From the NCBI GenBank assembly GCA_023300235.1, contig JALZWN010000034.1, positions 33,514 through 97,513 of the forward strand: 64,000 nt of DNA, given 5' to 3'. Under the pieces are notes generated by a model, which was not told the origin of the DNA, did no database searches, and saw only the letters and a list, made by a program, of their open reading frames with translations. This DNA comes from Mariniblastus sp. (GTDB taxonomy: Bacteria > Planctomycetota > Planctomycetia > Pirellulales > Pirellulaceae). The position numbers were made by a program, and so were the translations under genes. Shown piece after piece: positions 1 to 48,544 of the stretch; position 1 is the first letter of the stretch; the number at the start of each line of letters is the position of its first letter.

Positions 1-849
1 ACCCTGTCGCACTGGACGCATCCGCCAGCAACCAACTCGCTGCCCGCTCGTATTCGATCACTCCTCAAACTCGCGGCGACAGCCAGCCAGACCAAAGTCG
101 ATTACCTGCATCAACTTCAGGCCGAGAAGTTAGCCGCGATGAAGCAACTGGCCTACGGGGCCAGCCACGAGATTAACAACCCGCTGGCCAACGTCGCGAC
201 CCGAGCCCAAACCATGCTGGCCGACGAGGACCACCCGGAAAAGCGGACGAAGCTGGCAACGATCTACCAGCAAGCGATGCGCGCCCACGAGATGATTTCG
301 GACTTGATGCTATTCGCTCATCCGCCAGCCACCAACGCGACGCCCATTCTGCTGCGACAACTTATTCGACGGTTCATAGGCGAACATGAAAAAACGTCCC
401 CCGTCGACGAAGCGATCACTACCAACATTTTCGTTGGCCCAGGGATCGACCGTGCCTGTTTGGACCAGACGCAGTTTGTAGTTGTTTTGCAAATGCTGGC
501 TCGTAATTCACAAGAAGCCATCCGCGCGACCAAAGATGCGACTGGCGAGATCGACATTCGTTTTGACCTGGTGGACCGTCAAGCACCAGGTTTGCCTCAG
601 CGTTTGCAGCTGCTCCCAACCAATACGTTTTTGCAAGTGAGCGTTCAAGACAACGGCATCGGCGTGGACGCTCGTGTCCGCCGGCATTTGTTTGACCCGT
701 TCTTCAGTGGGCGCGAAGCGGGCAGGGGACTAGGCTTCGGCCTGTCCAAGACCTGGCGGATCATCGAGCAACACGGTGGCGAAATCATCCTGGACGAAGC
801 ACACACTCAAGGCACTCGCTTCGTTTTCTGGCTACCGCAACAAGACTAG
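1..849 (+). CDS. Sensor histidine kinase, C-terminal part (HisKA + HATPase_c); 5' end lies outside the window
   Basis: Frame 1 is open from nt 1, with no stop before the listed ATG at 139. H-box 'ASHEINNPLANV', G1-like 'VQDNGIGV', G2 'GRGLGFGLS'. Confidence 0.8.
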   Translation, partial: TLSHWTHPPATNSLPARIRSLLKLAATASQTKVDYLHQLQAEKLAAMKQLAYGASHEINNPLANVATRAQTMLADEDHPEKRTKLATIYQQAMRAHEMISDLMLFAHPPATNATPILLRQLIRRFIGEHEKTSPVDEAITTNIFVGPGIDRACLDQTQFVVVLQMLARNSQEAIRATKDATGEIDIRFDLVDRQAPGLPQRLQLLPTNTFLQVSVQDNGIGVDARVRRHLFDPFFSGREAGRGLGFGLSKTWRIIEQHGGEIILDEAHTQGTRFVFWLPQQD

Positions 850-1266: not shown

Positions 1267-3174
1267 ATGCGAACTCAATCGATCTTCGCTCTCCTTCTTT
1301 TTTTCCTCACGGCCCTCTGCGGGCAACTTGCGTGGGGGCAAGACGGCTTGGAGGTGACGCTCGAGAAGCCAGCCGCTACCCAAGCTGAGCCAGCCCCAGT
1401 CAAACCGGCGACGGTGGACCCGGACTTCGCGTCGCCAACCGCAACAATGGCCACGTTCTTGAAAGAGATGGATCTCTATAGCGAGGAACTGGCGGCAGAG
1501 AATTCGACCGCCCAGCAACAGAGGCTCAACAAAGCCATCCGCACGCTCAAGCTGACCGATGTCACCCGAGAACGCGGTCCCAAGCTGGCGAAAATGTTGT
1601 TGGTCACGCTCAACCGACTGGGAGAATTCAGATGGTTTGATCTGGGGGACGAAGACGACGTAAAGGGACGCGAAGAAGAAACCTATTTCCCTAACCGGCG
1701 TTTTGATCACATCATCTCGGCGGTGCCCGATGTCGTGCCGGAGGGCTCCATCGTGCTAGCCAAACAACCCGACGGACGCTGGCTTTTTTCCGAAGAAACA
1801 ATCGCAGGGCTGGATGAATTGTTCCGGTCGCTCGAGCCGCTGCCCATCATTGTCGGAGCTGACACGGACGCGATTGCCGCTGAGAGTTGGCTGCGTCGGC
1901 AGATGCCTGACCATTTAAAACGAAACACGTTTCTGACCATCGAGTACTGGCAGTGGATGGCGTTGCTGGTGCTAATCTTTATCGGGGTAGCGATTGACCG
2001 GTTGAGCCGTCTGGTCAACCAAGCCGTCGGTCAGCGAATCATCCTACGACGTGGCGCCGAACCCGACCCCGAAAGCATGCGTTTGTTCGTGAGGCCCGCC
2101 GGTCGGTTATTGATGGCATTGTTTTGGCTGTCGACGCTGTGGTTATTGGACCTTCCCGGTGCCGCCTACCCGATCGTCCACGGCGCTGCCCGAGTATTCG
2201 CCATCCTCGCCGGCGCCTGGGCGCTATGGCGATTGATTGACCTAATTATTGGATCGCTTGTTCAAAAGGCACTAAAAACCGACACCAAATTTGATGACGT
2301 CGTTTACCCGATGATTCACACCACAATTCGGATCTTCATCGCTCTGTTCACGATCATTTACAGCGGCCTGGCATTAAACATCAACGTCTGGCCGGCGGTT
2401 ACAGCACTTGGCATTGGCGGCATCGGGTTCGCCTTCGCCGCCAAAGACACATTGGAAAACTTTTTCGGATCCGCAACGGTGCTGATCGATCGTCCGTTCG
2501 GCGTCGGAGACTGGGTCGTTATTGGGGATGTCGAAGGCACGGTCGAACAGATTGGATTCCGGTCGACTCGCTTGCGTACTTTTTATAACTCCTTGATCAC
2601 CGTGCCCAACGCCAATCTAGTCCGCGCCGCTGTGGATAATTATGGGGCCCGCCGCTATCGCCGTTGGAAGTGCCACGTTGGGGTGCAGTACGATACACCG
2701 CCGGAAAAACTGGTCGCGTTCTGCGAAGGCATCCGTGAACTGGTTCGCACTCATCCTTACACCCGCAAGGATTATTTCCAAGTCTGGCTGAATCAGTTTG
2801 GTCCGTCATCGCTGGATGTGCTGGTTTACGTCTTCTACGAGGCTCCGGACTGGTCGACCGAACTTCGCGAGCGTGAACGGATGATGTTGGACATGATGCG
2901 ATTAGCCAACAAGTTAGGCGTCGAGTACGCATTCCCAACTCAGACGGTTCACCTGCATCAACAAGAGCCTAGCGTTCCAAACACGCCGGCCGATGCCCCA
3001 GGATTCTCGACCGACCAGCGTGCGATGGTCGAAGGAATCCGCACTGTCCACGAACTTGTTGCTAACCAAAGTTGGCAAACCAAAAAACCCGGCCCGGTCG
3101 AATACAAGCACGGCCCGACCCAATTGGACGGCGATACTGATTCCCAAATCGAACAACGCAGTGCGGGTGGCTAA
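1267..3174 (+). CDS. MscS-family mechanosensitive ion channel
   Basis: Signal-like N-terminus, several TM helices, and the MscS core 'GIGFAFAAKDTLENFFGSATVLIDRPFGVGDWVVIGDVEGTVEQIGFRSTRLRTF'. Confidence 0.85.
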   Translation: MRTQSIFALLLFFLTALCGQLAWGQDGLEVTLEKPAATQAEPAPVKPATVDPDFASPTATMATFLKEMDLYSEELAAENSTAQQQRLNKAIRTLKLTDVTRERGPKLAKMLLVTLNRLGEFRWFDLGDEDDVKGREEETYFPNRRFDHIISAVPDVVPEGSIVLAKQPDGRWLFSEETIAGLDELFRSLEPLPIIVGADTDAIAAESWLRRQMPDHLKRNTFLTIEYWQWMALLVLIFIGVAIDRLSRLVNQAVGQRIILRRGAEPDPESMRLFVRPAGRLLMALFWLSTLWLLDLPGAAYPIVHGAARVFAILAGAWALWRLIDLIIGSLVQKALKTDTKFDDVVYPMIHTTIRIFIALFTIIYSGLALNINVWPAVTALGIGGIGFAFAAKDTLENFFGSATVLIDRPFGVGDWVVIGDVEGTVEQIGFRSTRLRTFYNSLITVPNANLVRAAVDNYGARRYRRWKCHVGVQYDTPPEKLVAFCEGIRELVRTHPYTRKDYFQVWLNQFGPSSLDVLVYVFYEAPDWSTELRERERMMLDMMRLANKLGVEYAFPTQTVHLHQQEPSVPNTPADAPGFSTDQRAMVEGIRTVHELVANQSWQTKKPGPVEYKHGPTQLDGDTDSQIEQRSAGG

Positions 3175-3730: not shown

Positions 3731-4696
3731 CTAATAACGCGTCGACATTCGAACAAAAAACGAACTACTCAACGGAACCTCCACCGAGTCTTGATCCAGT
3801 TCAAGATCTCGCGAGAACGCATAACCGATTTCAGCGGCATACTTTCGCCCCAATACAAACGGCGCGTTTACGGGAGCCGAAGGTCGCCCCTCCCACCCTA
3901 CGAACACTCGCCAATCGCCATACGAAAGTTGCTGATCAACTCCGCCTTCGCTTTCGTATCCCCAAGTGTTTCCATCTAAACCCACTCCGGTATAAATCCA
4001 ATTTTGTCGTTGCCCGTCGTCGCTCAAGAGATAGCTGAGTTTTGGTTTGGGCAAAATCAAATCTAAACGGCTCCGTGAAGTTGGCACCCAAATCGCCCCC
4101 AACGCAGGAACCACCGGCAAATCGTCTCGGCCTAAAGCGATCGCCCCAAAAGACAACTTCAATTGAGGATTCGCCTCCCAGATCGCGAACGCACCTCCGC
4201 GAAACCGCCAAGCATCACTCGACCGGTTATCGCCATCTGTCGCAAAATCCACTCCGATGATCGAACGCACCGCCCAACGGTCACTCAGCTTGCGGACTCC
4301 ACTGACCCCGATCGAAGCTTCGTACAAATCCGATGGCAAACCAAAATCGTCGGCAAAGTTTAACTCTGTATGATTGAACCCCACGCTAACCATCGGCGGC
4401 GGCCCACCTTTTGGACGCAAAAACAACAACGGCACCCGTAACCCGACACCTAGCTTTCGCAGGCCAAGATCGGAATCCGTCAGCCATTCGGCATCAAGAC
4501 TCCCCGGAATCCCGCGCGGCCGCTGGCTTTGACTGGGGGTTTGATCAACTGCATAAACAGACGCTTGGCCTGGCGCACTGTCGAGATTTTCATTTGCCGG
4601 ATAAACCTGAGCAACCAACAAACGTTCACCGCTAGCACTGCTGACCAAGACAGCGAGCCAACCTAAAATTAAAGCAAACTTCTGTTTTCTGACCAT
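3731..4696 (-). CDS. Secreted hypothetical protein, possibly an outer-membrane beta-barrel
   Basis: Signal peptide 'MVRKQKFALILGWLAVLVSSASG', alternating hydrophobic pattern, C-terminal aromatic residue ('...FVRMSTRY'). No family recognised. Confidence 0.55.
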   Translation of the reverse strand: MVRKQKFALILGWLAVLVSSASGERLLVAQVYPANENLDSAPGQASVYAVDQTPSQSQRPRGIPGSLDAEWLTDSDLGLRKLGVGLRVPLLFLRPKGGPPPMVSVGFNHTELNFADDFGLPSDLYEASIGVSGVRKLSDRWAVRSIIGVDFATDGDNRSSDAWRFRGGAFAIWEANPQLKLSFGAIALGRDDLPVVPALGAIWVPTSRSRLDLILPKPKLSYLLSDDGQRQNWIYTGVGLDGNTWGYESEGGVDQQLSYGDWRVFVGWEGRPSAPVNAPFVLGRKYAAEIGYAFSRDLELDQDSVEVPLSSSFFVRMSTRY

Positions 4697-5093: not shown

Positions 5094-7226
5094 ATGATCG
5101 ACGCCAAAGAAACAACTGACATCATTCGTCGTATCTGCGAACACATGACGATCGCTTTCTCGGCCAACCGTGTGTATCCAGGTATCGCGGACCTGAAGAC
5201 TAGCGACGAACCGGTTGAAGTCGAGAAGCACCTTGACTCCGTCGGCAAACAATTCGGAATTCGTTTTCGCCCCATGTCCGGCCCCGTTCGAGACCTGCTG
5301 AGCACGGTCGCTGATTCTGGGCCCGTGCTGGTTGGCAAATTAACTCTTGGCGACCGCCTAGCGACCGAAGGAGCGCCGCTTACGTTAATCCTGCGTTTCA
5401 GCGGCCGCAACAAACTGGTCATCGTGCAAGACGGTATCGAACAGTTGGTCAACACGTCCTGGGTTCGAAAACGATTCCGCCTCAAGGATTCCCGCGATTA
5501 CAACTGGCTATTGGCCCAACCAATGCTGGCCGCTCAAAACGCCTCACGAATTCACTACGACGGTTCAACGGCCCCGAAGCCTTTGGCTCCCTTGAAGCGC
5601 TTGATCGCTTTCATGAAACCTGAAACCGGCGACATAAAATCAATTTTCGTTTTTTCGTTGTTTATCGGACTGCTAAGCCTAACGTTGCCACTGGCGGTCG
5701 AAGCCGTCGTGAACACGATTGCTTATGGTCGCTACCTGCAACCGTTAATCGTCCTGTCATTGATCGTCATGGTCTTCCTGGGCTTTCGCGCCGGTTTACA
5801 AATCCTAGTTACCATCGTCTCCGAATACATCCAACGCAAACTATTCGTGCGCACGGTCGAAGACCTTTCCTATCGACTTACCCGCGTGCCACTTCCCGTC
5901 TGGCGAAAGTACCATGGCCCGGAACTAGTCAATCGCTTCTTTGACATCGTTAACGTTCAAAAAATCACTTCCAAGCTCTTGCTAGATTCGCTGATGCTTG
6001 TTTTACAAACCGCAATCGGCTTGTCGCTGCTGGCTTTTTATCATCCATTTTTGTTAGGCTACGACATCGGATTGTTAGCCTTGATGTCAGTCGTGCTTTA
6101 CTTAATAGGCCGTGGAGCTGTTAAGACCGCAAAAGACGAATCGCAATTGAAATACGAAACCGGTGCGTGGTTACAAGAAATCGTCCGCCACCCGAGTACA
6201 TTCAAATTCAATGGCGGCCTTGGATTCGCGATCAATCGAGCAGACGAACTGACTGCCAGATACATCAACCACCGCCAAAAGCACTTCAGCATTCTCCTAC
6301 GGCAAATCTCCTTTGCCATGTTCATGCAAGTTATCGCGGCGACAATTTTGCTCGCACTGGGTGGTTACCTCGTCATCATCCAACAAATCTCACTTGGCCA
6401 GTTAGTAGCGGCTGAATTGATCGTGACCGTGATTTTGGGATCCTTTGCCAAACTTGGAAAGGACCTAGAAAGTTTTTACGACCTCATGGCATCGGTCGAT
6501 AAACTCGGCAAACTCTTTGACCTGCCCGTCGAACCGCATGACATGCTACAACTCCCTAACAGCAATCAAGCGCGTGCACTCTCACTCAGGGGCCTCAAAC
6601 TTGACTCGACCAACAACCACCCTAGTGACATCGAATTTGCTCCCGGCCGCAGTGTTGCTATCTTTGGTTCATCCGAGCTACGACGTTCAAAACTGATCGA
6701 GTCCATGGTTGGCCATGCCAAAGCTGACGCCGGTTACGTATTAATCGACGATTATCGAATCGACACCATCAGCGCGGAATCATTACAAGAATCGGCTTCC
6801 TTGATCCGCGAAATCGAACTGTTCGAAGGCACCGTCGACGAAAACATTCGCATGGGCCGCGAAGGACTCGGCTCCGATCGCGTCAATCAAATCATCAATC
6901 AACTTGGCTTAGGGCAAATCGTATCCGGCCTAGAAAACGGCCTGCTGACCCCACTTAGCATTTCGGGATACCCACTATCACAAGGCGAAGCCATCCGCAT
7001 CGTTCTCGCACGAACACTTATTGCGCGTCCCGGAATCGTATTCATTGACGGGTTGCTGGACCGCTTATCAGACAATGACACGCTGGACGTCCTCCAGCGT
7101 TTGGACGCGTTTGATGGCGAAACCACAGTGGTGATTTCAACAGGACGTAAGGTAATCGCCAACTGGGCTGACCAACAACTGGACATCAGCATACCTCATT
7201 GGCAACTGGGAAAATATTCTGATTAG
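5094..7226 (+). CDS. ABC exporter (N-terminal C39-peptidase-like region + type-I exporter TMD + degenerate NBD)
   Basis: Six-helix ABC_membrane-like region. C-terminal NBD-shaped domain with 'LSQGEAIRIVLARTLIARPGIVFIDGLLDRLSD'. First gene of an ABC-MFP-OMF operon. Confidence 0.8.
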   Translation: MIDAKETTDIIRRICEHMTIAFSANRVYPGIADLKTSDEPVEVEKHLDSVGKQFGIRFRPMSGPVRDLLSTVADSGPVLVGKLTLGDRLATEGAPLTLILRFSGRNKLVIVQDGIEQLVNTSWVRKRFRLKDSRDYNWLLAQPMLAAQNASRIHYDGSTAPKPLAPLKRLIAFMKPETGDIKSIFVFSLFIGLLSLTLPLAVEAVVNTIAYGRYLQPLIVLSLIVMVFLGFRAGLQILVTIVSEYIQRKLFVRTVEDLSYRLTRVPLPVWRKYHGPELVNRFFDIVNVQKITSKLLLDSLMLVLQTAIGLSLLAFYHPFLLGYDIGLLALMSVVLYLIGRGAVKTAKDESQLKYETGAWLQEIVRHPSTFKFNGGLGFAINRADELTARYINHRQKHFSILLRQISFAMFMQVIAATILLALGGYLVIIQQISLGQLVAAELIVTVILGSFAKLGKDLESFYDLMASVDKLGKLFDLPVEPHDMLQLPNSNQARALSLRGLKLDSTNNHPSDIEFAPGRSVAIFGSSELRRSKLIESMVGHAKADAGYVLIDDYRIDTISAESLQESASLIREIELFEGTVDENIRMGREGLGSDRVNQIINQLGLGQIVSGLENGLLTPLSISGYPLSQGEAIRIVLARTLIARPGIVFIDGLLDRLSDNDTLDVLQRLDAFDGETTVVISTGRKVIANWADQQLDISIPHWQLGKYSD

Positions 7227-7324: not shown

Positions 7325-8689
7325 ATGATAACTAACAAACCGATTCGGTCAGCAATGTCGATGTCAAACCGTAACGAAACGAACTTGCACCTCATGCAGT
7401 CGTCGCGATACGCAAAGCGTTTGGCGAAGTGGCTGCTGCTTTTGCTAGTACTTTGCGTGCTTGCCATGGCATTTCTACCTTGGCAACAAACCTCACGTGG
7501 TACCGGTTCGGTCGTGGCTTACGCTCCTCAGGAACGCCAGCAAACGATCGACGCACCAACCAAAGGGATCGTGGCGAGAATTGGAGACGGGTTGGCCGAA
7601 GGGTCGCAAGTAAAACAAGGCGACTTTATTCTCGAGATCCAACCGTTTGCCGCCAATATGGTTCAGCAACTCCAAGGACAATTGCAAGATCTGAAAACCA
7701 AAGAAGAAACATTCAAAGTCAAATCCGAAGCCTACCAACAAAACGTCCAAGGCTTTACCGAAGCCCGAGACTTTGCCGTTAGCGCCGCACTGCAGATGGT
7801 GGAAGCGGCAGAAGCTAAGCTTGAAAGCAAGCAGCGTTTGACCCAAGGCTACGATGCCAAACAACTACAAACCAAATTGAATTTCCAACGCCAAAACAGC
7901 CTTGCCAAGCAAGGACTGAAACCCGCGAAAGAAATCGAGAAGCTGAGAAAAGAATGGGACGTCGCGAAAGCCAATTTCGAATCGATCCAACAGGACGTCA
8001 TTTCTTTGAAAAAAGAACTGGCCAGCAAGAAGGATTCCTTGGAAGAGAAACGGCGCCTGGCGCAAACCAAAATCGACTACGCACGTGCTTTGCAGCAAGA
8101 CGCGATCGGCGGAGCAGCGACGATCCGCAAAGAAATTGGCGACGTAAAAATCAAACTTGGCGAAATGGATCGGTTGACCATCCACGCCCCTCGCGACGGA
8201 ACCATCTATCGAATGCCGATCTACGAACTCGGCCAGACCATCAAAGAAGGCGAAGCAGTTCTTACATTGATTCCAGAATCGACTCAAAATGCAGTCGAAC
8301 TGATGATCAATGGCAACGATCTTCCGTTGATTCAGAAAGGACAAGAGGTTCGTCTTCAATTCGAGGGCTGGCCAGCCGTTCAAGTCGCCGGTTGGCCGTC
8401 GGTTTCCGTTGGAGCCTTCAGTGGACAAGTCGCGACGATCGATTCGACCGACAACGGCAAAGGCCAATTTCGAATCCTTGTAGTTCCCACCGAGGATCCG
8501 GACTTACCATGGCCCGAGGACACCGAACGATTTTTACGACAGGGCGTACGAGCCAACGGCTGGGTACAACTTCGAAAAGTTCGCCTAGGTTTCGAACTCT
8601 GGCGTCAAATGAATGGCTTCCCAGTCGTGATCGAAGGCAAAGAAATCAAAAAAACAAAAACTGCCAAGCCGCCCAAGGTTCCCAAGTAG
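7325..8689 (+). CDS. HlyD-family membrane fusion protein
   Basis: N-terminal TM anchor, long coiled coil, lipoyl-like hairpins 'IDAPTKGIVARIGDGLAEGSQVKQGDFILEIQP' and 'IHAPRDGTIYRMPIYELGQTIKEGEAVLTLIP'. Confidence 0.85.
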   Translation: MITNKPIRSAMSMSNRNETNLHLMQSSRYAKRLAKWLLLLLVLCVLAMAFLPWQQTSRGTGSVVAYAPQERQQTIDAPTKGIVARIGDGLAEGSQVKQGDFILEIQPFAANMVQQLQGQLQDLKTKEETFKVKSEAYQQNVQGFTEARDFAVSAALQMVEAAEAKLESKQRLTQGYDAKQLQTKLNFQRQNSLAKQGLKPAKEIEKLRKEWDVAKANFESIQQDVISLKKELASKKDSLEEKRRLAQTKIDYARALQQDAIGGAATIRKEIGDVKIKLGEMDRLTIHAPRDGTIYRMPIYELGQTIKEGEAVLTLIPESTQNAVELMINGNDLPLIQKGQEVRLQFEGWPAVQVAGWPSVSVGAFSGQVATIDSTDNGKGQFRILVVPTEDPDLPWPEDTERFLRQGVRANGWVQLRKVRLGFELWRQMNGFPVVIEGKEIKKTKTAKPPKVPK

Positions 8690-8691
8690 CA

Positions 8692-10440
8692 TTGTGCCTG
8701 TTGGCAATCGTTCTGGTCATTGCTGCGGGCTGCCGTAGCACTCGCTCCAGCGTCGCCTTCGCACAGCCAACGATTGCGCAGCCTTCCTTTGAGGACAGCC
8801 AACTCCACCCCAATGCGAACGAGCCATCCGCTCCAACAATCGGTTTGGTCAGCCACCAAGCAGGCGACCAAACGCAGAATGCTGACAAAATCGACGCCGC
8901 CATCGAAGTCGACGAACTAGACAACACGCTCGCGAAAGAACTCGACAAAAACTCCGCAGCAGCCGAACCTGACCTAGCTGAAACCAACCAACAGGATCCG
9001 GTAGAACACGACGGCCAAGCCTCTCCGGTACCATTCGAGGTCACCAACAAAACTGAAATCGATACAAGCGTTACCGACAACGGTGGTATTTCTTTGGGTT
9101 CAGTTCTTCAATCAGTCGCTGATTGCTACCCTGAGATTTCAATCGCTATCGGTGAAATCGAAGCCGCCAGCGGAAAAACGCTCGCTTCGTGGGGGAAGTT
9201 CGATACCATCGCTTCCGCCCATAGTATCTCGCAACCATTGGGTTTTTACCAAACCTATCGCAACGGCGTCGGTCTCTCACGACCTTTGTATAGCGGCGGA
9301 GAAGTTTACGGCACCTACCGCATCGGTGACGGGAACTTTGAACCTTGGTACGGAGAACGCGAAACTAATGAAGGCGGCGAGTTCAAAGCTGGCTTCGACT
9401 TACCGCTGTTGAAAGACCGCAACATCGACAAACGACGCGCCGGCGTGCAAACCGCTCAGCTACAACAGCAACAACTTTCCGCCAACATCGAAACTCGGCT
9501 ACTCAACTTCGAGCGACTTGCCACGCAAGCCTATTGGGACTGGGTCGCCAACGGACAAGCCGTTACAATCCAACGACAACTTTTGGAACTCGCCGAAACT
9601 CGCGTTGACCAAATCGACAAACGCATGGCCGCCGGCGACTTGGCAACCATTGCTGGCATCGACAACGATCGATTCATCGCTAAACGAAAAAACGGACTAA
9701 TCAAAGCAAGACGTGGACTTGAAAAAGCCGCGATCAAACTTTCGATGTTCTATCGAGACGCATCTTGCCAGCCGATCGTCGCCGACGCAACAGACCTACC
9801 GCCCAACTTTCCAAGCGAAAACGCGCTGCTGCAACAGCAGATCCTAACCGATATTCAAACCGCCTTATCGAATCGTCCAGAAATGCTTGAACTGGCCGCC
9901 GCTCGCCAAGAGGCTTTCGTAAAACTCCAGTATGCCGAAAATTTACTGCTGCCAAAACTAGACATCAAAGGATTTGCCGGCCAAGACGTAGGAGGTGAAA
10001 CGAGCAGCACGGGTGATAAAACTCCGTTTGAACTACAGTTTGGCGTGTTTGCTGAAGTCCCCATTGAACGCCGCGAAGGAGCAGGCAAAGTGGCTCAAGC
10101 CCGCGGCAAAATCAAACAACTCGAAGCCAAACGCCAATTGGTCTCCGACAAAATCAGAGCCAGCATTCAAGACGCCGCCTCGGCGGTGAACAATGCCGCC
10201 GAACAAATCCTACAGTCGAAAGAGAACGCTCGGTTGACGGCTCAATCGCTACGCCTGGGCCGCTTGGCATTCGACGCCGGCGACATCGACTTGCTGGCAT
10301 TGAACATCTACGAGTCATCCGTCGCCGACGCCAACTTGCAATTATTAGAAGCTCAATACAAATACTTTAGCGGCCTGGCAAAGTACGATACGATGGTCCG
10401 CAACCAAGCGTTCACACAGACCGGGTCTCCTTCGAACTAG
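8692..10440 (+). CDS. TolC/NodT-family outer membrane factor lipoprotein
   Basis: Lipobox 'LVIAAGC' followed by an acidic/Q-rich linker and a two-repeat TolC-like helical/beta region. There is no in-frame ATG near the signal peptide. I propose the TTG at 8692, 3 nt after the hlyD stop; the start is uncertain. Confidence 0.7.
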   Translation: MCLLAIVLVIAAGCRSTRSSVAFAQPTIAQPSFEDSQLHPNANEPSAPTIGLVSHQAGDQTQNADKIDAAIEVDELDNTLAKELDKNSAAAEPDLAETNQQDPVEHDGQASPVPFEVTNKTEIDTSVTDNGGISLGSVLQSVADCYPEISIAIGEIEAASGKTLASWGKFDTIASAHSISQPLGFYQTYRNGVGLSRPLYSGGEVYGTYRIGDGNFEPWYGERETNEGGEFKAGFDLPLLKDRNIDKRRAGVQTAQLQQQQLSANIETRLLNFERLATQAYWDWVANGQAVTIQRQLLELAETRVDQIDKRMAAGDLATIAGIDNDRFIAKRKNGLIKARRGLEKAAIKLSMFYRDASCQPIVADATDLPPNFPSENALLQQQILTDIQTALSNRPEMLELAAARQEAFVKLQYAENLLLPKLDIKGFAGQDVGGETSSTGDKTPFELQFGVFAEVPIERREGAGKVAQARGKIKQLEAKRQLVSDKIRASIQDAASAVNNAAEQILQSKENARLTAQSLRLGRLAFDAGDIDLLALNIYESSVADANLQLLEAQYKYFSGLAKYDTMVRNQAFTQTGSPSN

Positions 10441-10791: not shown

Positions 10792-11667
10792 CTAACCTTC
10801 AATTGGTCGGCCAACCATCAACGAACATTGCACCACCGCACCAGGCACTGTTTTAAATTCCCACTGGTAATCGTCACGCGTTGGCAACGTTTTCACCAGT
10901 TCGTAAAACTCAGCCTCGCGGTAAGTCCGGGCACTCGTCACCGCCCCATCCCAAGCAAAACAAGCAGGAATGATCGGCAGCAAAAAGCTAAACGCAAGCC
11001 CGTGAACGGTAACCGGCCGAGCAAACAAACTCACCAGTAAACCAAACAGAAAGTTCGCCGGCAACGTCACCCACCACAGCCAGCGTGGCGGCACCGTTCC
11101 GTCGGTCAATTCAAAAATCACCAATGGCTGATTGGCCCGTTGAGCATCCAGCAACACCAGTCTCGCTTGCTCGGGCGCAAGATGATGAAACCCACAAACC
11201 AAAGTCCGCACCACCGATGCACCGCAATCGACCACCGATGCACCGCGATCGACCACCTGCACAGCCCCTCCCGCAACCGAAGTTTCCAATTGCTCCATCA
11301 ACGGCAAACACACATTCACCGGCCACTCAAGATAACGGATGCTTGACTTACTACCGTTAAGCTCGGACACCAACCTCGAAGGCGGTTGAAGATCGGTCAG
11401 CACCAAATCGATCCTGCGATCCTGATCTTGTTCTGCAACTACCAACTCCAACGCAGCGAGCATTGGCCCACCGCTTCCCGAGCACACATCAACGATCGTG
11501 ACCGCTTCTTCGCCAAAATTGGCAAGCACCTGCTTGACCTGATCAGCGACCACTCGCGGCACACCAAACCATCGGTGTACCACAACAATCATCGACGTCA
11601 CACAATCGCGGATCCAACTTGGGCAAACCGCAAGGTCTTCAACCTCAAATAGATGTAAACGCTTCAC
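10792..11667 (-). CDS. Class I SAM-dependent methyltransferase-like protein with hydrophobic C-terminal segment
   Basis: Motif I 'IVDVCSGSGGPMLAALE', acidic post-I 'LVLTDLQ', C-terminal TM-like 'WLWWVTLPANFLFGLLVSLFA'. Confidence 0.5.
   Translation of the reverse strand: MKRLHLFEVEDLAVCPSWIRDCVTSMIVVVHRWFGVPRVVADQVKQVLANFGEEAVTIVDVCSGSGGPMLAALELVVAEQDQDRRIDLVLTDLQPPSRLVSELNGSKSSIRYLEWPVNVCLPLMEQLETSVAGGAVQVVDRGASVVDCGASVVRTLVCGFHHLAPEQARLVLLDAQRANQPLVIFELTDGTVPPRWLWWVTLPANFLFGLLVSLFARPVTVHGLAFSFLLPIIPACFAWDGAVTSARTYREAEFYELVKTLPTRDDYQWEFKTVPGAVVQCSLMVGRPIEG
11211..11257. repeat. In-frame 21-bp tandem repeat (2.2 copies) inside the methyltransferase-like gene
   Basis: CCACCGATGCACCGC[A/G]ATCGA occurs at 11211-11231 and 11232-11252, then CCACC. 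It encodes 'VVDRGASVVDCGASVV' on the minus strand. Confidence 0.8.
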
Positions 11668-11863: not shown

Positions 11864-13558
11864 CTAATTCGAACTGCTCGCAATCCGCCAGCGTGAATTG
11901 AACGTAAAAATCATAGCCGCGAACAACGCCAAGTTTAGAACCACCGTAAACGACAAATAGCAGCCGAAGTGCACCAAATCTTTCACCGGGTAGTGCAACA
12001 AACTGGCCTCACCCGCCGTCGCCACCTGCCAACGCGACTCATTATCGACGGAATAATCGTCAACGTACAACGGCAAGTTATGAGCCGCCGCAAAGGGACT
12101 TGTCGCTGACATCGTCTTCACCACCTGCGTCGCCGGTGCAGCAGGGTAATACGTTTCCGCAAAGAAATTGGCGGCCAACGGAGCAACATACAACAACAAA
12201 ATAACCGAGTAAGTCACCAACAAACTGGTACTGGTCTTTTTACAAACCGTTGAAAAAAACAACGCCAACATCGACGTCGTCACACAAGTTAACACGTAAA
12301 TCACCAAGTAGCTAAGCATCGTTGGCATCGACTGCCACGCGTCAGGACTCAGCAACCCCAGCGTGATCGCGATCAACAAAGGCCACAACAAAAACAACGT
12401 CAATACACTGGAAACCCGCAACCCCGACAACAGCTTCCCCCAAAGAATTTGCCAAGGCGTAATCGACGTTGTCAGTAGCAGATCCAATGTCTGACGTTCA
12501 CGTTCACTCGTCACACTACCAGCCGAAAAAACAGGCCCGATCAACAAATTAAACAGGATGACGTAAGAAACGTACCACGGCGTCAACTGCCGAGCGATAA
12601 ACAAAAAGTACGCCATCAACGGCAACGCCAAAATCATGCTAACCTGAATCGCCAACCGCAGCATCAACGTGCCTTGGCCAAAAATCTCACTCCGCATCTC
12701 TTTATCATAGACCGGGTTAATCCCGTCCGGCATCAACGTCTCTCGGCTAGGTGGAGCCAACAAACGATCAGGAAACTGATCGCGAACAATCACCACACCG
12801 ATCGCATTTTTGTTCTCATCCTCGATGTCGATGACCTCTTTTCCCTCCGACCCAAAATCCGGAGGATACAGCATTCGCGAGCTACAGATATAAAACAACA
12901 CAATCGAAACCGCCGCCGCGAAACCGGGAATCACCGTAATCGCCATGTTCAAACGCATCTCGCCGAACTCGCTCATCGACCCCCAAAATAACACCCCCGC
13001 CAACGCCAACGGCAGAATCATCAAATAAGAAACCACCAACGCAGAACTCGTTCGCGAAAAGAAACTCCCCGCCGCCACACTGATCATACCAAAGGTAATC
13101 ACGCTCGCGATCAACGCCAGATACGCAGCCAGCACTTCATAAAACGAAACACCGCCTAACGGCAAACATAACATCACGATCGGCAACGAAGCGAAAATCA
13201 ACACAGCCAAGTGCGTCAGCGCCGCGACCAGCTTCCCCATCACAATCGACTCCGGACGAATCGGGCTCGCCAACAGCATCTCGTACGTCATCCGCTCCTT
13301 CTCGCCCGCAATCGATCCCGCCGCAAAACTTGGCGCCATCAAAGCCGCCAAAATATACTGTCCCAAAAACACCAAATCCACCAACACGCTCGACGCACCC
13401 GCATCGCTCAGATCCAACCGAACATTCTCCGTCGGCCAAGCAAAATAAACCACCGCCGCCAGCAGCACTTGATACACCAGCAACAAACCGAAGGCTCTGG
13501 GCTTGCGCAAATTGACCAGCAGTTCACGCTGTAATACGGGGTTACTAAAAAACTGCAT
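11864..13558 (-). CDS. Polytopic membrane protein, ABC-2-type permease-like (two fused halves)
   Basis: About 12 hydrophobic helices in two similar halves, with an ABC-2-like layout. No ATPase gene is adjacent. Confidence 0.5.
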   Translation of the reverse strand: MQFFSNPVLQRELLVNLRKPRAFGLLLVYQVLLAAVVYFAWPTENVRLDLSDAGASSVLVDLVFLGQYILAALMAPSFAAGSIAGEKERMTYEMLLASPIRPESIVMGKLVAALTHLAVLIFASLPIVMLCLPLGGVSFYEVLAAYLALIASVITFGMISVAAGSFFSRTSSALVVSYLMILPLALAGVLFWGSMSEFGEMRLNMAITVIPGFAAAVSIVLFYICSSRMLYPPDFGSEGKEVIDIEDENKNAIGVVIVRDQFPDRLLAPPSRETLMPDGINPVYDKEMRSEIFGQGTLMLRLAIQVSMILALPLMAYFLFIARQLTPWYVSYVILFNLLIGPVFSAGSVTSERERQTLDLLLTTSITPWQILWGKLLSGLRVSSVLTLFLLWPLLIAITLGLLSPDAWQSMPTMLSYLVIYVLTCVTTSMLALFFSTVCKKTSTSLLVTYSVILLLYVAPLAANFFAETYYPAAPATQVVKTMSATSPFAAAHNLPLYVDDYSVDNESRWQVATAGEASLLHYPVKDLVHFGCYLSFTVVLNLALFAAMIFTFNSRWRIASSSN

Positions 13559-24521: not shown

Positions 24522-25364
24522 CTAAACTCGGCAGATCTCTAGCACTTGCTGTGGCGATGCGATGTAGCTGGTATAAAACGGCCCAAACTCCGCATACTTT
24601 GCGCTGGCCTCATCGAATCTCATCTCGTAAACGATGTCTTTGAGATATTTAGGATTGGTGGCCCACAGCGTCACGCCCCATTCCCAATCATCCAAGCCGA
24701 TGCCAACTGTAATCAGTTGGGTGACCTTGCCGGCGAACTTGATACCACTTCTCGCATGCTGCGACATCATTCGTTGACGCTCCGACGACGCTTGCGAAAA
24801 CCAATTCGCTCCCGGCACTCGCCATTTATTCATTGGATAAAAACAAGAAACGGGCCAATCAGGAAAGTCTGGTGTCAGACGTTGGTAGTTCATCTTTCCA
24901 ACGCGTCCCCCGTAGGCGGCAATCTTTTTCTGAAACGCCGAACTCTCCGGGTCTTCGCCTTCCCGCTTCAATCGTTCACCGTATTGCTCGACCGACAACG
25001 CATACTCTGAAATCTCAGAGATCGACACGTAAGACCATGTCGTATTAAGGAGTTTCCCCATTGCCGATGCCATCAATCGCTGGTGGAGGGATTCGACTTT
25101 GATCGGGTCAGGGTCCATCAACATCAGCGAAAAATCAGCTTTGTGGCCACTGGTCATCCCCAGTTGAAACCGAGCAGGGTGGTGATCACCATCGCTCAGC
25201 ACGGCAACGAACTCTTCTTTGGCTACTTGCAGTCCGCCGCTGTCCTCGGCACCGAGCCTTGCAATCGCAGGTCGATCAAAAGAATAAAAGAAATGGCTGC
25301 AATGCCAACCTTCTCCCGGAGTTACGTCTTGTTCTTCAAAACCGAGATCTGAAATTTTACTCAT
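24522..25364 (-). CDS. Chlorite dismutase / HemQ (coproheme decarboxylase) family protein
   Basis: 'CFYPMNKWR...ANWF', 'RQRMMSQHARSG' and 'GLDDWEWGVTLWA' are patterns typical of the Cld/HemQ family. Confidence 0.7.
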   Translation of the reverse strand: MSKISDLGFEEQDVTPGEGWHCSHFFYSFDRPAIARLGAEDSGGLQVAKEEFVAVLSDGDHHPARFQLGMTSGHKADFSLMLMDPDPIKVESLHQRLMASAMGKLLNTTWSYVSISEISEYALSVEQYGERLKREGEDPESSAFQKKIAAYGGRVGKMNYQRLTPDFPDWPVSCFYPMNKWRVPGANWFSQASSERQRMMSQHARSGIKFAGKVTQLITVGIGLDDWEWGVTLWATNPKYLKDIVYEMRFDEASAKYAEFGPFYTSYIASPQQVLEICRV

Positions 25365-25770
25365 TAGTTACTTTGCTTCTACTCAAAAGGTCACTGACTT
25401 TTTCTAACAGCAGTGGGATTTTTACTGGTTTATAGAAGTACCCTTCAACCCCTAGCACCTCCGCATACGTCCGATGTCGGTCGCCAAAGTTACCAGTGAC
25501 CATGACAACGGGGATCGGATCTTCAAGAATCTGAAGCAAGCGTTCGAGTACCAAAAACCCGCTGCGTCTTGGCAGCATGATATCGAGTACGATCAAGTCG
25601 GGCGACTTAGTCTCAGCCACGGCCAACCCTTCGTTGCCGTCTTTTGCGACCGTGGTGACATAACCGGCACCCTCAAACGCGTTCGACAATATACGCGCCA
25701 TTTCACGATCGTCGTCGACAATCAGAATATGATGAGATTGTTCTGTAGCTAGGTGGTTGTCTATCGCCAT
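25357..25770 (-). CDS. Stand-alone response-regulator receiver domain (CheY-like)
   Basis: 'ILIVDDDREMARIL...PDLIVLDIMLPRRSGFLVLERL...PVVMVTG...YFYKPV'. The ORF is open up to 25923; I chose the start at 'MAIDNH'. Confidence 0.75.
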   Translation of the reverse strand: MAIDNHLATEQSHHILIVDDDREMARILSNAFEGAGYVTTVAKDGNEGLAVAETKSPDLIVLDIMLPRRSGFLVLERLLQILEDPIPVVMVTGNFGDRHRTYAEVLGVEGYFYKPVKIPLLLEKVSDLLSRSKVTNE

Positions 25771-26137
25771 TTTCCGCTTGTTATCGAGGGTGGAGTTCAA
25801 AGGCGTTTCTAAGATTTGCAACCGAAATGGATCGCAGGATCGAAACTGTTCCGGCATAGTACCATTTAGGGGGGCCGCAAGACAGGCCACGAGCATCGAG
25901 ATTTTCTGTCCAAAGTCTATCAAGGATTTTTCCTATTGGAGTCGCAAAAAATCAAACTGAGCAATATTTCTGTCCGCTACGATAAAATAAAGAAGTAGGA
26001 GGAACCATAGAGTACCGAATGTTCGGAATTTCTAGCTCGCACAGAAAACCGAAAACTTCTTGGGCGAATCCGACCGATGACCCAATAGAGGCGAGTTTGC
26101 GAAGGAACGCATCCCAACACTTAACCGGGACTTTGAT

Positions 26138-38085: not shown

Positions 38086-38637
38086 CTAAGATTTGCCGGC
38101 CACAACAACCTCTCGCATGGCAAGCTTTTGGACCAGCTCTTGTCGAGCCCGATGGACCCAAGTTTTGACCGTCCCCAACGGGACACCTAACTGCTCAGCG
38201 ATTTGTTGGTACTCCATCTGCGACCGATGAAACAACTCGAACGCGTTGCGATAATCATCTCTGATTCCTTGCAACGCCAAGTCCACTTCTTCCGCCAACA
38301 ACTGGCCTCGTTGAGCCTGCACGGAGCTATCTTCGACGGGATGCTCCAATGTGATTTCTTTGGGACGTCGTGTCCGTTTGGCCAGCCGAGTGCGACAGCG
38401 ATTGCCGGCGATGGTCAACAACCACGGTTCAAAGGCTCGCGTCGGATCCCAGCGATGAAGATTCCTCGCCACTCGCAAAAACGTCTCTTGCGTCGCGTCC
38501 TCCGCGTCCTCGCGTTGCCCAAGCATTCGGTAACACAGCCCATAAACCCGACCGCGAAAGCGCTGCAGCAGGTCGCCGAAGGCAGACTCATGTCCGTCCA
38601 GATAACGACCAACAATAATAGATAGTTCTTCAGCCAA
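38086..38637 (-). CDS. ECF (group 4) sigma-70 family RNA polymerase sigma factor
   Basis: Region 2 'DAEDATQETFLRVARNLHRWDP...FEPWLLTIAGNRCR'; region 4 'YQQIAEQLGVPLGTVKTWVHRARQEL'. TTG start preceded by an AAGGA Shine-Dalgarno sequence. Confidence 0.9.
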   Translation of the reverse strand: MAEELSIIVGRYLDGHESAFGDLLQRFRGRVYGLCYRMLGQREDAEDATQETFLRVARNLHRWDPTRAFEPWLLTIAGNRCRTRLAKRTRRPKEITLEHPVEDSSVQAQRGQLLAEEVDLALQGIRDDYRNAFELFHRSQMEYQQIAEQLGVPLGTVKTWVHRARQELVQKLAMREVVVAGKS

Positions 38638-38883
38638 TGGAAAATTCCTTGATACACCAGGTCTGTTGTATATACCTAGGTTAGCCGACCACAGTTTCGA
38701 TCTACGGGAAAAATCCTACAAAAAACTCCGCAGCAACCAACGCAGAGCTCTTCGCGATCGATTGACGACTCTTGGGCTCTCCCCACGTCATCGGCTTTCT
38801 GCCTGTGATCTTAAACACACAGCATACGGTTTAGACGCACTAAAAACCAATAACTAACGCGAATCATCGACGCCTAAAGAGCT

Positions 38884-39591
38884 TTATCGGCGTTTAAACA
38901 ACTTTTTCAGCACATCGTCGGCCGCCGTGGTCGAATTGCCCTCTCGTTTTTCTTCTGGCTTGGGCAGCTTTTGGGGAAGCTTCTTTGGCGTGGACTTTCC
39001 TTTAGAACTCCCCGAATCAGCCTCGGCTTCTGCGGCTGCCTTTTCTTCTGCCTCCTTGCGACGCTGCTCGTCTCGCCAAGCCTTCCCTTTACCAAAGACC
39101 GACGTGTCTTCCAGTTTCAATTGCAACGTTTCCGCAGAAGAAATCTTGTTTCGTTCACTCGTGTCCGGATCGTTCTCGTCATCCATCAACCAGTCAGAGA
39201 TACTGTCCTCCAGCGACATCTTTTTCTTCGTCGTGGCAGCACGCGAAGCAGCCTCGACCACGCCTTTTACCTTCGGTTTCTTCTGACCAGCCAGTGCATG
39301 ATCAACAATGACCTCAAACTGCAACCGGCCAACTCGCAACGAATCACCTGAACTAGCATCATGAGGGCTGTCTAACTTCAGCCCATTCACGTAAGTACCG
39401 TTCCGACTCTTCAGGTCACTAATCCGGACGACACCATCGCCAACCAATATCTCGCAATGCTCACGACTGACCAGATCACTCGATGGACGCAGATGAGCCG
39501 TCTCGCCGCGCCCGATAATGAACCGAGGAACCGCAATTTTGATCTGCCTTCCGTCGTTCTTGCCGCCGATAACCTTTAGAGTTACTTGCAT
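38884..39591 (-). CDS. FHA domain protein with K/E-rich tail
   Basis: 'FIIGRGETAHLRPSSDLVSREHCEILVGDGVVRISDLKSRNGTYVNG'. Confidence 0.85.
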   Translation of the reverse strand: MQVTLKVIGGKNDGRQIKIAVPRFIIGRGETAHLRPSSDLVSREHCEILVGDGVVRISDLKSRNGTYVNGLKLDSPHDASSGDSLRVGRLQFEVIVDHALAGQKKPKVKGVVEAASRAATTKKKMSLEDSISDWLMDDENDPDTSERNKISSAETLQLKLEDTSVFGKGKAWRDEQRRKEAEEKAAAEAEADSGSSKGKSTPKKLPQKLPKPEEKREGNSTTAADDVLKKLFKRR

Positions 39592-45453: not shown

Positions 45454-45858
45454 GCCGTCAACCTTTCTTCGTGTCGGGCGATATACGTAGATGCCGTCCA
45501 AATCACACAGTTTCCTCGGGCAACGATTTTGCTCCGAAGGTGGATTTGGCTCAGCGGCCGTTTTTGGATGTAAAAGAACTGCCCCAATTCTACCCACGCC
45601 GATCGCCTTGGCTAGGCGTCCTAACTGCCTACTCTACCAATTTCGCCGCAATGGCAATCCGTTTCGACCAAGTATTATCGACCACGTAATATATACCGGG
45701 ACACATCGCCGCACGCTCCGCCCACAGTCCGGCGTGCTAGATCGAGCCACGAATCCCGAAGAGATGCAGTGCTTTGGGCCCCGTGGGCTCCGTGGGCCTA
45801 GGATGACGAAACAGCCGGAGCCAAGATCCGATGGGGAGACCGGGGTCGACAAAGCGAA

Positions 45859-48358: not shown

Positions 48359-48544
48359 TGAGGGTGGTTGGTTTTCGCTGCGAGATAAAAAGTAGAGCAG
48401 GGCGGTTGGCTGGCATTCCACCAGCAAGTGCAACTAGTAAGGCAGAACCCCATTAGTACAGATTATTGAAGACACTTCTACGTGTCTAGTCTTGGTTGGC
48501 AGGCTGGAATCACTTTTACAAACTAGGAAGTCCCTATAAATGGT

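Follow-up and report, generated by a model that had tools for sequence, protein, structure and literature searches.

The ABC superfamily is defined by the binding and hydrolysis of ATP. HlyB, the ABC protein of the E. coli haemolysin type I secretion system (T1SS), functions with HlyD and TolC, carries all the ATPase motifs and requires ATP hydrolysis. In known heterodimeric exporters the two halves come from neighbouring paralogous genes, each with its Walker A. [quoted passage not shown] In these exporters (TM287/288, TmrAB, BmrCD, TAP1/2 and CFTR) the catalytic Glu, the H-loop His and the signature are substituted (PMC7756269). Furthermore, TAP with a substituted D-loop Asp performs downhill translocation without ATP hydrolysis, as a nucleotide-gated passive facilitator (PMC4242082), and SbmA/SLiPT proteins, with a fold like that of an ABC transmembrane domain (TMD), work without ATP and use the proton gradient as energy (PMC13316013). 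In Planctomycetes and others, SecA_DEAD/HlyD/peptidase_M50/OEP modules have been described by Kamneva et al. (2015) as T1SS-related systems where the usual ABC engine is unavailable (PMC4452313). We searched the literature for the family described below and for homodimeric ABC exporters in which both sites are degenerate, and found neither.

We have analyzed a gene for an ABC-fold protein in a 64-kb stretch of DNA, here called the window, and compared it with these systems. The protein has in common with HlyB the C39-like/TMD/NBD architecture and fold (Foldseek 8dck_A and 7sgr_A, ~720 columns), as well as partners of the HlyD (adaptor) and OEP/TolC (outer-membrane factor, OMF) families; unlike in HlyB, the A-loop, Walker A, Q-loop, catalytic Glu, D-loop Asp and H-loop His are replaced. 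With PCAT1 and ComA it shares the C39 fold, but manual mapping finds neither catalytic Cys nor His, and the ATPase motifs are degenerate. In contrast to the exporters with one degenerate site, the gene is single and the P-loop is lost, so that a homodimer would have two degenerate sites, each affected on the Walker side as well as on the signature side. The TAP mutant resembles it in the missing D-loop Asp (DRLS instead of SALD); that mutant, however, is engineered and still needs nucleotide binding, whereas the case described here is a natural family. SbmA is an importer that has no NBD and stands outside tripartite systems, while the window protein retains a complete but apparently dead NBD. 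The planctomycete modules use a SecA_DEAD ATPase instead of an ABC-fold protein; a link to them was considered and rejected, no SecA_DEAD, M50 or GAF-HlyD gene having been found in the window or as a conserved neighbour in the 81 related loci that we compared.

The exporter fold and its nucleotide-binding domain

The 710-aa product has the six-helix TMD and the NBD fold of a type IV ABC exporter (Table 1). ABC_membrane (PF00664) matches residues 184-450 with 35.9 bits (cut-off 28) and ABC_tran (PF00005) residues 512-652 with 35.8 bits (cut-off 25), scores that are above the cut-off yet weak. In the AF2 model six long TM helices (175-210, 216-263, 276-316, 318-365, 375-428 and 434-475) are followed by an NBD that folds confidently (pLDDT about 80-90). 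Whole-chain Foldseek matched PCAT1, HlyB, TM287/288 and MsbA with E values of 1e-21 to 1e-26, the best being PCAT1 (6v9z_A, 4ry2_A) and HlyB over ~720-730 aligned columns. The initial annotation of this DNA had described a 2.1-kb frame without stops and a six-helix exporter TMD, and had proposed searches with both Pfam models and a structural comparison with HlyB or PCAT1; the frame is open, and profiles, helices and fold all agree with that description. Assembly error, which it had named as a possible source of the unusual residues, is excluded because six contigs from separate samples and assemblers encode the identical 710-aa protein.

Table 1. Features of the locus, in window coordinates.
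Feature	Coordinates	Strand	Details and basis
Pseudo-ABC exporter gene: C39-like domain, TMD and degenerate NBD	5094..7226	+	710 aa plus stop; ORF, Pfam, Foldseek
N-terminal C39-like domain, apparently non-catalytic	5094..5588	+	residues 1-165 (folded part ~2-145); AF2, Foldseek
TMD, six-helix, type IV exporter	5589..6533	+	residues 166-480; AF2 helices, invariant columns
Degenerate nucleotide-binding domain	6534..7223	+	residues 481-710; ABCB1 and family alignments; pLDDT ~80-90
Walker A remnant GSSELRRSK	6666..6692	+	G4 to E528, G6 to R530, Lys to R531
Q-loop position	6807..6809	+	Gln to R572; ABCB1 and family alignments
Signature LSQGE (canonical LSGGQ)	6975..6989	+	L628-S-Q-G-E; Ser and second Gly retained
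Walker B and D-loop IVFIDGLLDRLSD	7035..7073	+	catalytic Glu to G653; SALD to DRLS
H-loop region STGR	7137..7148	+	His to T683, then G684-R685
HlyD-type membrane-fusion (adaptor) protein	7325..8689	+	HlyD_3; public gene callers start at 7355, 444 aa
Outer-membrane factor, OEP/TolC family	8692..10440	+	lipobox-like LVIAAG-C; TTG start at 8692 or 8701

The motifs of the NBD were mapped in a phmmer alignment to ABCB1 and in a family alignment including motif-intact members, two independent alignments that agree. Walker A (GxxGxGKST) is replaced by G525-S-S-E528-L-R530-R531-S-K, Walker B (hhhhDE) by IVFID652-G653 and the D-loop by D656-R-L-S659, and the aromatic A-loop residue (Tyr) of intact family members is deleted. 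Both alignments support the substitutions first annotated at Walker A, the Q-loop, the signature and the Walker B Glu. The H-loop His, also annotated as lost, is indeed lost, but the position given was one residue off, His aligning with T683 and not with G684. An intact Walker A Lys, Walker B Glu and H-loop His would speak against a pseudo-ATPase, and all three are replaced. As aligned, the protein differs from a catalytic ABC ATPase on every count (Walker A, Walker B Glu, H-loop and Q-loop, signature, D-loop and A-loop), and every canonical residue for ATP binding or hydrolysis is missing from it. The public annotation 'ABC transport system ATP-binding protein' is probably wrong for this clade. 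One earlier claim went too far in denying an intact site even to a heterodimer with a normal partner: LSQGE retains the Ser and the second Gly, and consequently the Walker A/B/H side of a partner facing this signature might still work.

The N-terminal domain modelled alone gave an AF2 pLDDT of 89.6, and Foldseek placed it closest to 3zua (the CLD of HlyB), with 3k8u (ComA), 7n87 (PCAT1) and 3b79 also matched, at E about 3e-4 and TM 0.5-0.6. The initial description of the first ~150 aa as C39-like therefore holds for the fold. It does not hold for the sequence, where identification failed: a profile search of the PDB gave no C39 entry, and PF03412 (Peptidase_C39) matched one of 26 N-terminal domains of the family (E=0.08) and not that of the window protein. 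We mapped the domain manually on predicted secondary structure, with catalytic Cys and His positions that we take to be those of the PCAT1 motif. The corresponding strand has no His, as had been noted, while C15, which had been pointed out beside it, is found towards the C-terminus of helix 1 (4-18 in AF2), off the position of the catalytic Cys, and is probably not its equivalent. The domain would be a C39 fold without catalytic Cys and His, as in CLD-type (HlyB-type) transporters; the Cys/His/Asp triad and PF03412 match of an active C39 peptidase, required for membership of the PCATs, were not found in it. No other part of the protein is so poorly conserved (the window and L002 are 50% identical here), and some family members apparently do without it.

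Operon and genomic neighbourhood

Two co-directional genes follow that of the ABC-fold protein. The adaptor matches Pfam HlyD_3 with 51 bits (cut-off 22.2), and NCBIfam type_I_hlyD with 74.6 bits, under the cut-off of 208.65. The OMF, which gene callers predict as 579 aa from 8701, matches Pfam OEP with 96.6 bits (cut-off 22). The locus thus encodes the HlyD-family adaptor and the TolC/OEP-family OMF characteristic of a T1SS. With the NCBIfam LssB, PrtD and HlyB models the ABC subunit scored 134, 124 and 117 bits, under the cut-offs of 693, 510 and 726; a motif-intact family member reached 231 bits on the T1SS model with the cut-off of 693. The order ABC, adaptor, OMF, with the ABC gene first, is kept across 81 loci, mostly of Planctomycetota, with some labelled Myxococcota, Acidobacteriota and Methylobacter; almost everywhere the adaptor gene lies 3' of the ABC gene, and most of the loci have an OEP gene in the third place. 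The three-gene unit is not absolute, as a co-directional OMF gene is absent in two further loci encoding 86% orthologues (L082 and L083). Unlike in the HlyB system, the window operon itself encodes the OMF, which is lipoprotein-like, and no RTX-type substrate gene lies near it. In the related loci we found neither a conserved substrate gene beside the operon nor a conserved gene for a double-glycine leader peptide nearby. The adaptor contains no exact match to the RLS (RxxxLxxxxxxS) TolC-docking motif, and scanning the operon for promoters and terminators gave counts not above those in shuffled sequence.

A second exporter gene of the family was found in the operon in none of the 81 loci, each examined with 10 kb on either side, and the extra ABC-like ORFs seen in five of them (L004, L006, L013, L026 and L071) have no conserved position. 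The window has 44 ORFs that reach 180 aa; a Pfam scan of 36 of them, covering the non-overlapped candidates, revealed no other ABC ATPase or exporter, and the complete Mariniblastus chromosome OZ253677.1 returned a single family locus. A paralogous half-transporter that would supply a consensus site, as in heterodimeric exporters, is not conserved within ±10 kb and was not found in the 64-kb window.

Other genes of the window (MscS, DUF6268, a Na+/H+ antiporter, an ABC-2 permease and a 291-aa ORF at 10792-11667) were considered as parts of the system and rejected, as they are absent near the operon in L001-L081. The 291-aa ORF was also considered as a cryptic ATPase, but searches of Pfam and the PDB with E values up to 10 matched nothing; it adjoins the ABC-2 permease, which has no ATPase. 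Regulator genes adjoin some of the 81 related loci, NhaR-type in 22 (255 bits, cut-off 219) and ArsR-like in seven (by sequence inspection), which suggests an inducible envelope function.

Stepwise motif loss and conservation

The large family to which the protein belongs is unnamed and has no curated model. Among 1.84 billion representatives searched with a profile, 1845 matched at E<1e-30, the best 150 all above 500 bits. A motif-intact stage (Walker A, LSxGQ, DE, TH) is represented by nine representatives and about seven loci, and R or K takes the place of the Q-loop Gln in all family members that we inspected, the otherwise intact ones among them. Most members combine Walker A with DG and TGR. 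Planctomycete lineages have for the most part replaced the catalytic Glu, the H-loop His and the D-loop Asp, often together with the signature Gly, and have kept Walker A. The lineage of L001 still has GRSGSGKT, the window clade having lost Walker A after the split between them; several other branches are likewise without Walker A, with replacement sequences unrelated to those of the window clade. This Pirellulaceae clade has lost the P-loop and the A-loop as well, and several other clades have apparently done so on their own. The NBD/TMD divergence ratio climbs with motif loss from 1.28 to 1.42 and 2.49, the TMD being the more conserved domain at every stage. In this comparison the window protein stands at the end of a series in which the family has given up its ATPase motifs step by step.

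All three domains of the window protein are under strong purifying selection, and the adaptor and OMF genes beside it are intact. Ratios of dN/dS were calculated by NG86, and only the pair L082/L083 gives reliable values because dS against the window is saturated (>2 or undefined). For this pair the NBD had a dN/dS of 0.095, against 0.051 for the TMD and 0.049 for the N-terminal domain; between the window and L082 it was 0.033 in the NBD, with saturated dS. The residues replacing the motifs are themselves conserved. At the Walker A position E528 is found in 110 and R531 in 118 of the 120 closest homologues; the Q-loop position is R in 110/119 orthologues, G653 is kept in 114/119, T683 in 117/119 and G684 and R685 in all 119, and D656, L658 and D660 are invariant. 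The signature, with the clade consensus LSQGQ, keeps its Ser in 105/119 (88%) and its second Gly in 102/119 (86%), and is thus less conserved than the replacement residues. The orthologue of the cultured Mariniblastus fucicola (P0047) is in the same motif state: GSTELRRSK, R, LSQGQ, DG and STGR. Within the clade, identity is 83% in the TMD and 58% in the NBD; the TMD, the most conserved part of the protein, has dozens of invariant columns, among them polar positions of TM1 and TM6 common to HlyB-type exporters. The initial annotation had read the gene as a maintained pseudo-ATPase rather than a decaying one, and had suggested looking at orthologues. These keep the substitutions; the NBD dN/dS of ~0.03-0.1, the near-invariant replacements in 120 orthologues and the conserved operon uphold that reading.

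A Glu in TM1 (E203) occurs in 2 of 16 fully intact members and in about two thirds of the degenerate ones. As a marker of proton coupling it was retained as a weak lead only, since phylogeny confounds the enrichment and Glu alternates with Gln.

Possible modes of action

The stepwise loss among relatives, together with strong conservation, indicates that this export machine is probably not run on the ATPase of the pseudo-ABC protein. On balance we favour a model in which the NBD has been retained for structure and coupling; the complex would do without this protein's ATP, probably as a downhill or ion-gradient-coupled conduit. The 710-aa product forms the inner-membrane part of a tripartite envelope system that resembles type I secretion and is encoded by three genes, with the HlyD-type adaptor and the lipoprotein-like OMF as partners. 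It would act as a homodimer, like the single-gene, motif-intact members, with the NBD serving for dimerization and coupling to the TMD and not as the engine. Most likely the complex would be a gated facilitator or conduit, letting a substrate pass from the cytoplasmic membrane through the adaptor/OMF duct, either downhill or in coupling with membrane potential or proton gradient; the expression of the operon is probably stress-regulated. More speculatively, the conserved E528, R531, R572 and R685, at the former phosphate, Mg and gamma-phosphate contacts, may form a salt-bridge cluster replacing MgATP. The broader proposal, that a homodimeric HlyB-like exporter has repeatedly been turned into an ATP-independent, gradient-driven tripartite subunit, with intermediates still alive and these four residues filling the ATP site, is tentative, and we would not be surprised to see it fail. 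Some points weigh against an ATP-free complex: a passive conduit across two membranes would require tight gating; the signature Ser and second Gly are mostly retained, as expected when they face a partner's ATP site; and Arg at the P-loop Lys with Ser at the Ser/Thr position leaves room for non-canonical binding of nucleotide or phosphate.

The retained signature leads to a different explanation, in which the protein joins an active ABC exporter encoded elsewhere, as a heterodimer or in a larger HlyB/HlyD-like assembly, with LSQGE facing the partner's Walker A/B/H-loop and completing one ATP site that powers the system. It is a hallmark of known heterodimeric exporters that one half is degenerate at the Walker B Glu and the H-loop His (PMC7756269), and our survey covered 64 kb here and ±10 kb per homologue. 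Within that coverage, however, all 81 operons are without a second family exporter, no other ABC ATPase was found in the window and the few extra ABC-like ORFs are unconserved in position, while the complete chromosome yielded one family locus only. Neither the adjacent paralogue nor the Walker A pattern of known heterodimers is seen here; the D-loop is non-canonical, and the signature residues, kept in 88% and 86% of orthologues, are less constant than the novel ones. Moreover, the motif-intact members of the family are also single-gene, which implies a homodimer. We consider an active partner unlikely. The missing energy source would suit a protein that transports nothing, whether an inner-membrane anchor assembling or plugging the duct, a membrane tether, or a device for substrate titration through the C39-like domain. 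Conservation of the TMD and of the NBD-TMD interface but not of the catalytic site would fit such a scaffold or regulator, as would the OMF partner, which the closest relatives (L082, L083) have exchanged or lack. But it is the TMD that is most strongly conserved, including TM1/TM6 polar positions as in HlyB-type exporters, which argues for a conserved translocation path more than for a mere anchor; the layout of a transport-system operon is found in more than 70 loci, and the C39-like domain is the least conserved and apparently missing in some members. This makes a purely structural role improbable.

A further alternative keeps a ligand in the NBD: nucleotide or a phosphorylated compound would be bound non-canonically through R531, S532, R572 and R685, making the protein a ligand-gated switch like some pseudokinases. 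Arg in the place of Lys, a Ser kept where Ser or Thr is usual, a further pair of invariant Arg at the usual gamma-phosphate contacts, and intermediates with Walker A but without catalytic residues, which suggest stable binding without hydrolysis, are in line with this. With two of the three P-loop glycines changed to Glu and Arg, however, the negative charge and bulk of a Glu would lie at the phosphate site of the canonical geometry, the aromatic A-loop residue is deleted, and the Walker A replacements of other lineages are unrelated, as expected where no nucleotide is bound; we give such a switch little credence. That the gene is a pseudogene in early decay, or an artefact of sequencing or assembly, might be suspected from the weak Pfam scores of both ABC domains, but is refuted by the intact 2.1-kb frame, the identical protein in independent assemblies, dN/dS values of 0.1 or less and substitutions common to more than 100 orthologues.

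A presumably homodimeric, single-gene exporter without P-loop or catalytic residues, and still strongly conserved within an adaptor/OMF operon that is otherwise ordinary, raises the question of what an ABC fold can do without ATP. If the favoured ATP-free model is true, the family would provide a natural transition from pump to facilitator or from pump to secondary transporter. Its graded series of intact, hydrolysis-dead and binding-motif-lost forms allows comparative biochemistry beyond engineered mutants, by which one can test whether hydrolysis serves translocation itself or directionality alone, and how a pump turns into a channel, as in CFTR, or into a secondary transporter, as in SbmA. 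The cultured M. fucicola offers an organism with the fully degenerate form.

Degenerate ATPase motifs within an exporter fold

Both exporter domains described in the initial annotation are recognized by Pfam: the 710-aa window protein matches ABC_membrane (PF00664 type, the exporter TMD) at residues 184-450 (35.9 bits, cut-off 28) and ABC_tran (PF00005 type, the NBD) at residues 512-652 (35.8 bits, cut-off 25), scores above threshold yet far under those of ordinary exporters. The top-ranked NCBIfam models are the type I secretion subfamilies LssB, PrtD and HlyB, at 117-134 bits against cut-offs of 510-726. Motifs were placed with a phmmer alignment to ABCB1 and with a family alignment including motif-intact relatives, which agree on every catalytic motif, and coordinates were confirmed by translation. 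Walker A (canonical GxxGxGKST) reads G525-S-S-E-L-R-R531-S-K, the Q-loop Gln is R572, the signature LSGGQ is LSQGE, Walker B (hhhhDE) is IVFID-G653, the D-loop SALD is DRLS, the H-loop His is T683, followed by G684-R685, and the A-loop aromatic residue is absent. The catalytic substitutions listed in the initial annotation are therefore correct bar one residue: the H-loop His is indeed replaced, but its equivalent in the alignments is Thr683, not Gly684. At the level of these alignments, the window protein is shown to be without any canonical determinant of ATP binding or hydrolysis.

An AlphaFold2 model built from 36 sequences (mean pLDDT 70.9) comprises an elbow helix and six long TM helices, with the NBD fold predicted confidently (pLDDT about 80-90). 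The best whole-chain Foldseek matches in the PDB are PCAT1 (6v9z, 4ry2) and HlyB (8dck, 7sgr), over about 720-730 aligned columns, so that the N-terminal domain is included in the match. The C39-like character proposed for this domain holds for the fold but not for the sequence. Modelled alone (pLDDT 89.6), it is closest to the HlyB C39-like domain 3zua, the ComA and PCAT1 peptidase domains and 3b79 (E about 3e-4, TM 0.5-0.6), whereas a profile search of the PDB gave nothing relevant for C39 similarity and Pfam Peptidase_C39 matched one of 26 family N-terminal domains (E=0.08). By manual comparison with the PCAT1 motif, Cys15 would fall towards the C-terminal end of helix 1 and not at the catalytic position. 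The strand that bears the catalytic His in C39 peptidases appears to have no His here, in keeping with the lack of an obvious His partner in the initial annotation. We read the modelled domain as probably C39-like without catalytic function, of the kind found in HlyB-type transporters; since there is no peptidase triad, the protein is not a PCAT.

Coordinates of features in the window
Feature	Position	Strand	Remark
Histidine-kinase C-terminal fragment (HisKA + HATPase_c)	139-849	+	window left edge
MscS-family channel gene (635 aa)	1267-3174	+	between kinase and ABC gene
DUF6268 gene	3731-4696	-	between kinase and ABC gene
Pseudo-ABC exporter gene	5094-7226	+	uninterrupted ORF, 710 aa
HlyD-type adaptor	7325 or 7355 to 8689	+	downstream of ABC gene
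OEP-family OMF	8692 or 8701 to 10440	+	downstream of adaptor; lipobox-like LVIAAG/C
291-aa ORF adjoining ABC-2 permease gene	10792-11667	-	matches nothing in Pfam or PDB up to E=10
564-aa protein, two ABC-2 permease domains	11864-13558	-	no ATPase gene beside it
Chlorite-dismutase-family protein (280 aa) and response-regulator receiver protein	24522-25923	-	
ECF-type sigma factor, FHA-domain protein, 712-aa Ser/Thr protein kinase	38086-39591 and 46295-48433	-	
gcvP	40827-43727		
gcvT	44329-45597		

Purifying selection and graded motif loss

Six contigs that derive from separate samples and assemblers encode the identical 710-aa protein. Searching 5.8 billion clusters for homologues gave more than 2500 matches, the best 120 of which are all about 700 aa long, 57-86% identical and, where named, from Planctomycetota (Mariniblastus, Pirellulaceae). 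Among these 120 the replacement residues are near-invariant: E528 in 110/120, R531 in 118/120, R572 in 110/119, G653 in 114/119, T683 in 117/119, and G684 and R685 in 119/119 each. The signature keeps its Ser in 105/119 and its second Gly in 102/119, a lower conservation than that of the replacement residues. In cultured Mariniblastus fucicola, too, the orthologue has the same motifs. For the two 86% orthologues, L082 and L083, dN/dS (NG86) is 0.095 in the NBD, 0.051 in the TMD and 0.049 in the N-terminal domain, this being the only pair with unsaturated dS; window against L082 gives 0.033 for the NBD with dS saturated. By these comparisons the gene is shown to be under strong purifying selection, which bears out the earlier view of a maintained gene and, with the identity across six contigs, refutes decay or artefact.

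A profile search of 1.84 billion representatives gave 1845 family-level matches at E<1e-30, the top 150 all above 500 bits, and motif states across representatives and loci form a continuum. Nine representatives and about seven loci (Gemmataceae, Isosphaera, Singulisphaera-labelled bins and others) retain the A-loop Tyr, Walker A, LSxGQ, DE and TH, with the Q-loop Gln replaced by K or R. In the majority of planctomycete members Walker A is retained, with D-G and T-G-R and often with S, N or T for the second signature Gly; several further branches and the clade of the window protein have lost Walker A too. In a neighbour-joining tree the sister of that clade is L001, a related locus retaining GRSGSGKT, which indicates that Walker A was lost last; other lineages without Walker A are scattered, with unrelated replacement sequences, the count of independent losses being provisional in a tree of this kind. 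The TMD is better conserved than the NBD in every motif class, the opposite of what is generally seen in ordinary ABC exporters, and NBD divergence relative to the TMD grows along the series, with ratios of 1.28 in intact members, 1.42 in intermediate ones and 2.49 in the window clade. Even a motif-intact member, at 231 bits, stays below the LssB cut-off (693), so that the family is without a curated model. A TM6 Glu (E441) is near-invariant family-wide (335/343), and a TM1 Glu (E203), rare in motif-intact members (2/16, the rest having M or Q), is present in some two thirds of the degenerate ones and in 117/118 close-clade sequences, a pattern confounded by phylogeny. As far as the family's sequences indicate, the window protein stands at the end of a widespread, graded ATPase loss in a T1SS-like family, and the finding is more than a single odd gene.

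Operon context and possible working

The order ABC gene, adaptor, OMF is near-universal in 81 related loci (Pirellulaceae, Planctomycetaceae, Gemmataceae, Isosphaera, Kuenenia, Cystobacter and other Myxococcota, Bryobacterales, Methylobacter), with one family ABC gene per locus. The 86% orthologues have a two-component pair upstream and lack the co-directional OMF after the adaptor; L082 (12274-16467) and L083 have a nearby OEP gene on the opposite strand without tblastn similarity to the window OMF. No conserved candidate substrate gene was found beside the operon in related loci, and regulators alone recur as neighbours there. One of them, an NhaR-type LysR protein (NCBIfam NF008284, 255 bits, cut-off 219), adjoins the operon in 22/81 loci from several phyla, including L004, L005, L010, L016, L029, L042, L051, L072 and L077, and is often directly divergent; the 64-kb window has no copy. 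An ArsR/SmtB-like small HTH protein, so called by sequence inspection only, lies upstream of the ABC gene in seven loci (L038, L048, L068, L074, L079, L033, L032), mainly motif-intact and Acidobacteriota members, and a different small winged-helix-like HTH protein (WTFLTNHAHVL motif) in seven others. A small RaiA/HPF-like protein is encoded upstream of the ABC gene in six loci.

The system is built, and would work, like a HlyB-type T1SS, but the window protein falls below the curated family thresholds and departs from the consensus at every catalytic motif. Because the family is single-gene throughout, motif-intact members included, we infer a homodimer, in which both composite ATP sites would be dead and the NBD would persist as a module for dimerisation and TMD coupling. 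The complex would then run without ATP from its ABC-fold subunit. We favour, by analogy, a gated facilitator or gradient-coupled conduit, on two precedents: TAP with a substituted D-loop Asp, likewise absent here, becomes a passive nucleotide-gated facilitator (PMC4242082), and SbmA, with an ABC-TMD-like fold, is energised by the proton gradient (PMC13316013). More speculatively, a charge cluster of E528, R531, R572 and R685 may stand in for MgATP.

The main rival to this facilitator or conduit is an active partner encoded elsewhere in the genome, its Walker side facing the LSQGE of the window protein. The partly preserved signature would suit such a partner, but no conserved second exporter or ATPase was found within +-10 kb of the operon in the 81 loci, nor any in the 64-kb window. 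The degenerate-site exporters reviewed in PMC7756269 differ in keeping one consensus site, Walker A in both halves and an adjacent partner gene. Alternatively, the window protein might be a pure scaffold or regulator, or its NBD might bind ligand non-canonically. Our literature search, incomplete in coverage, found nothing on this family or on homodimeric ABC exporters in which both sites are degenerate; the SecA_DEAD/HlyD/M50 module of Planctomycetes (PMC4452313) is unrelated.

Other features of the window

The OMF frame (7954-10440) is open for about 740 nt 5' of the likely TTG start, overlapping the adaptor gene, and many related loci have a similar overlap of about 170-300 nt. Since the signal peptide predicted from 8692 or 8701 is without a charged n-region, these starts are tentative. 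The ABC-2 permease and the 291-aa ORF are conserved in L082 (89% and 66% identity), where insertions next to the pair encode an unrelated 616-aa OEP and a barrel-sandwich adaptor-like protein of 677 aa. In L082 the orthologue of the left-edge histidine-kinase fragment immediately precedes the ABC gene. The chlorite-dismutase-family gene lies immediately downstream of the receiver-protein gene, with an 8-nt overlap, and the sigma factor, FHA and kinase genes are interspersed with gcvP, gcvT and a lipoate-protein ligase gene.
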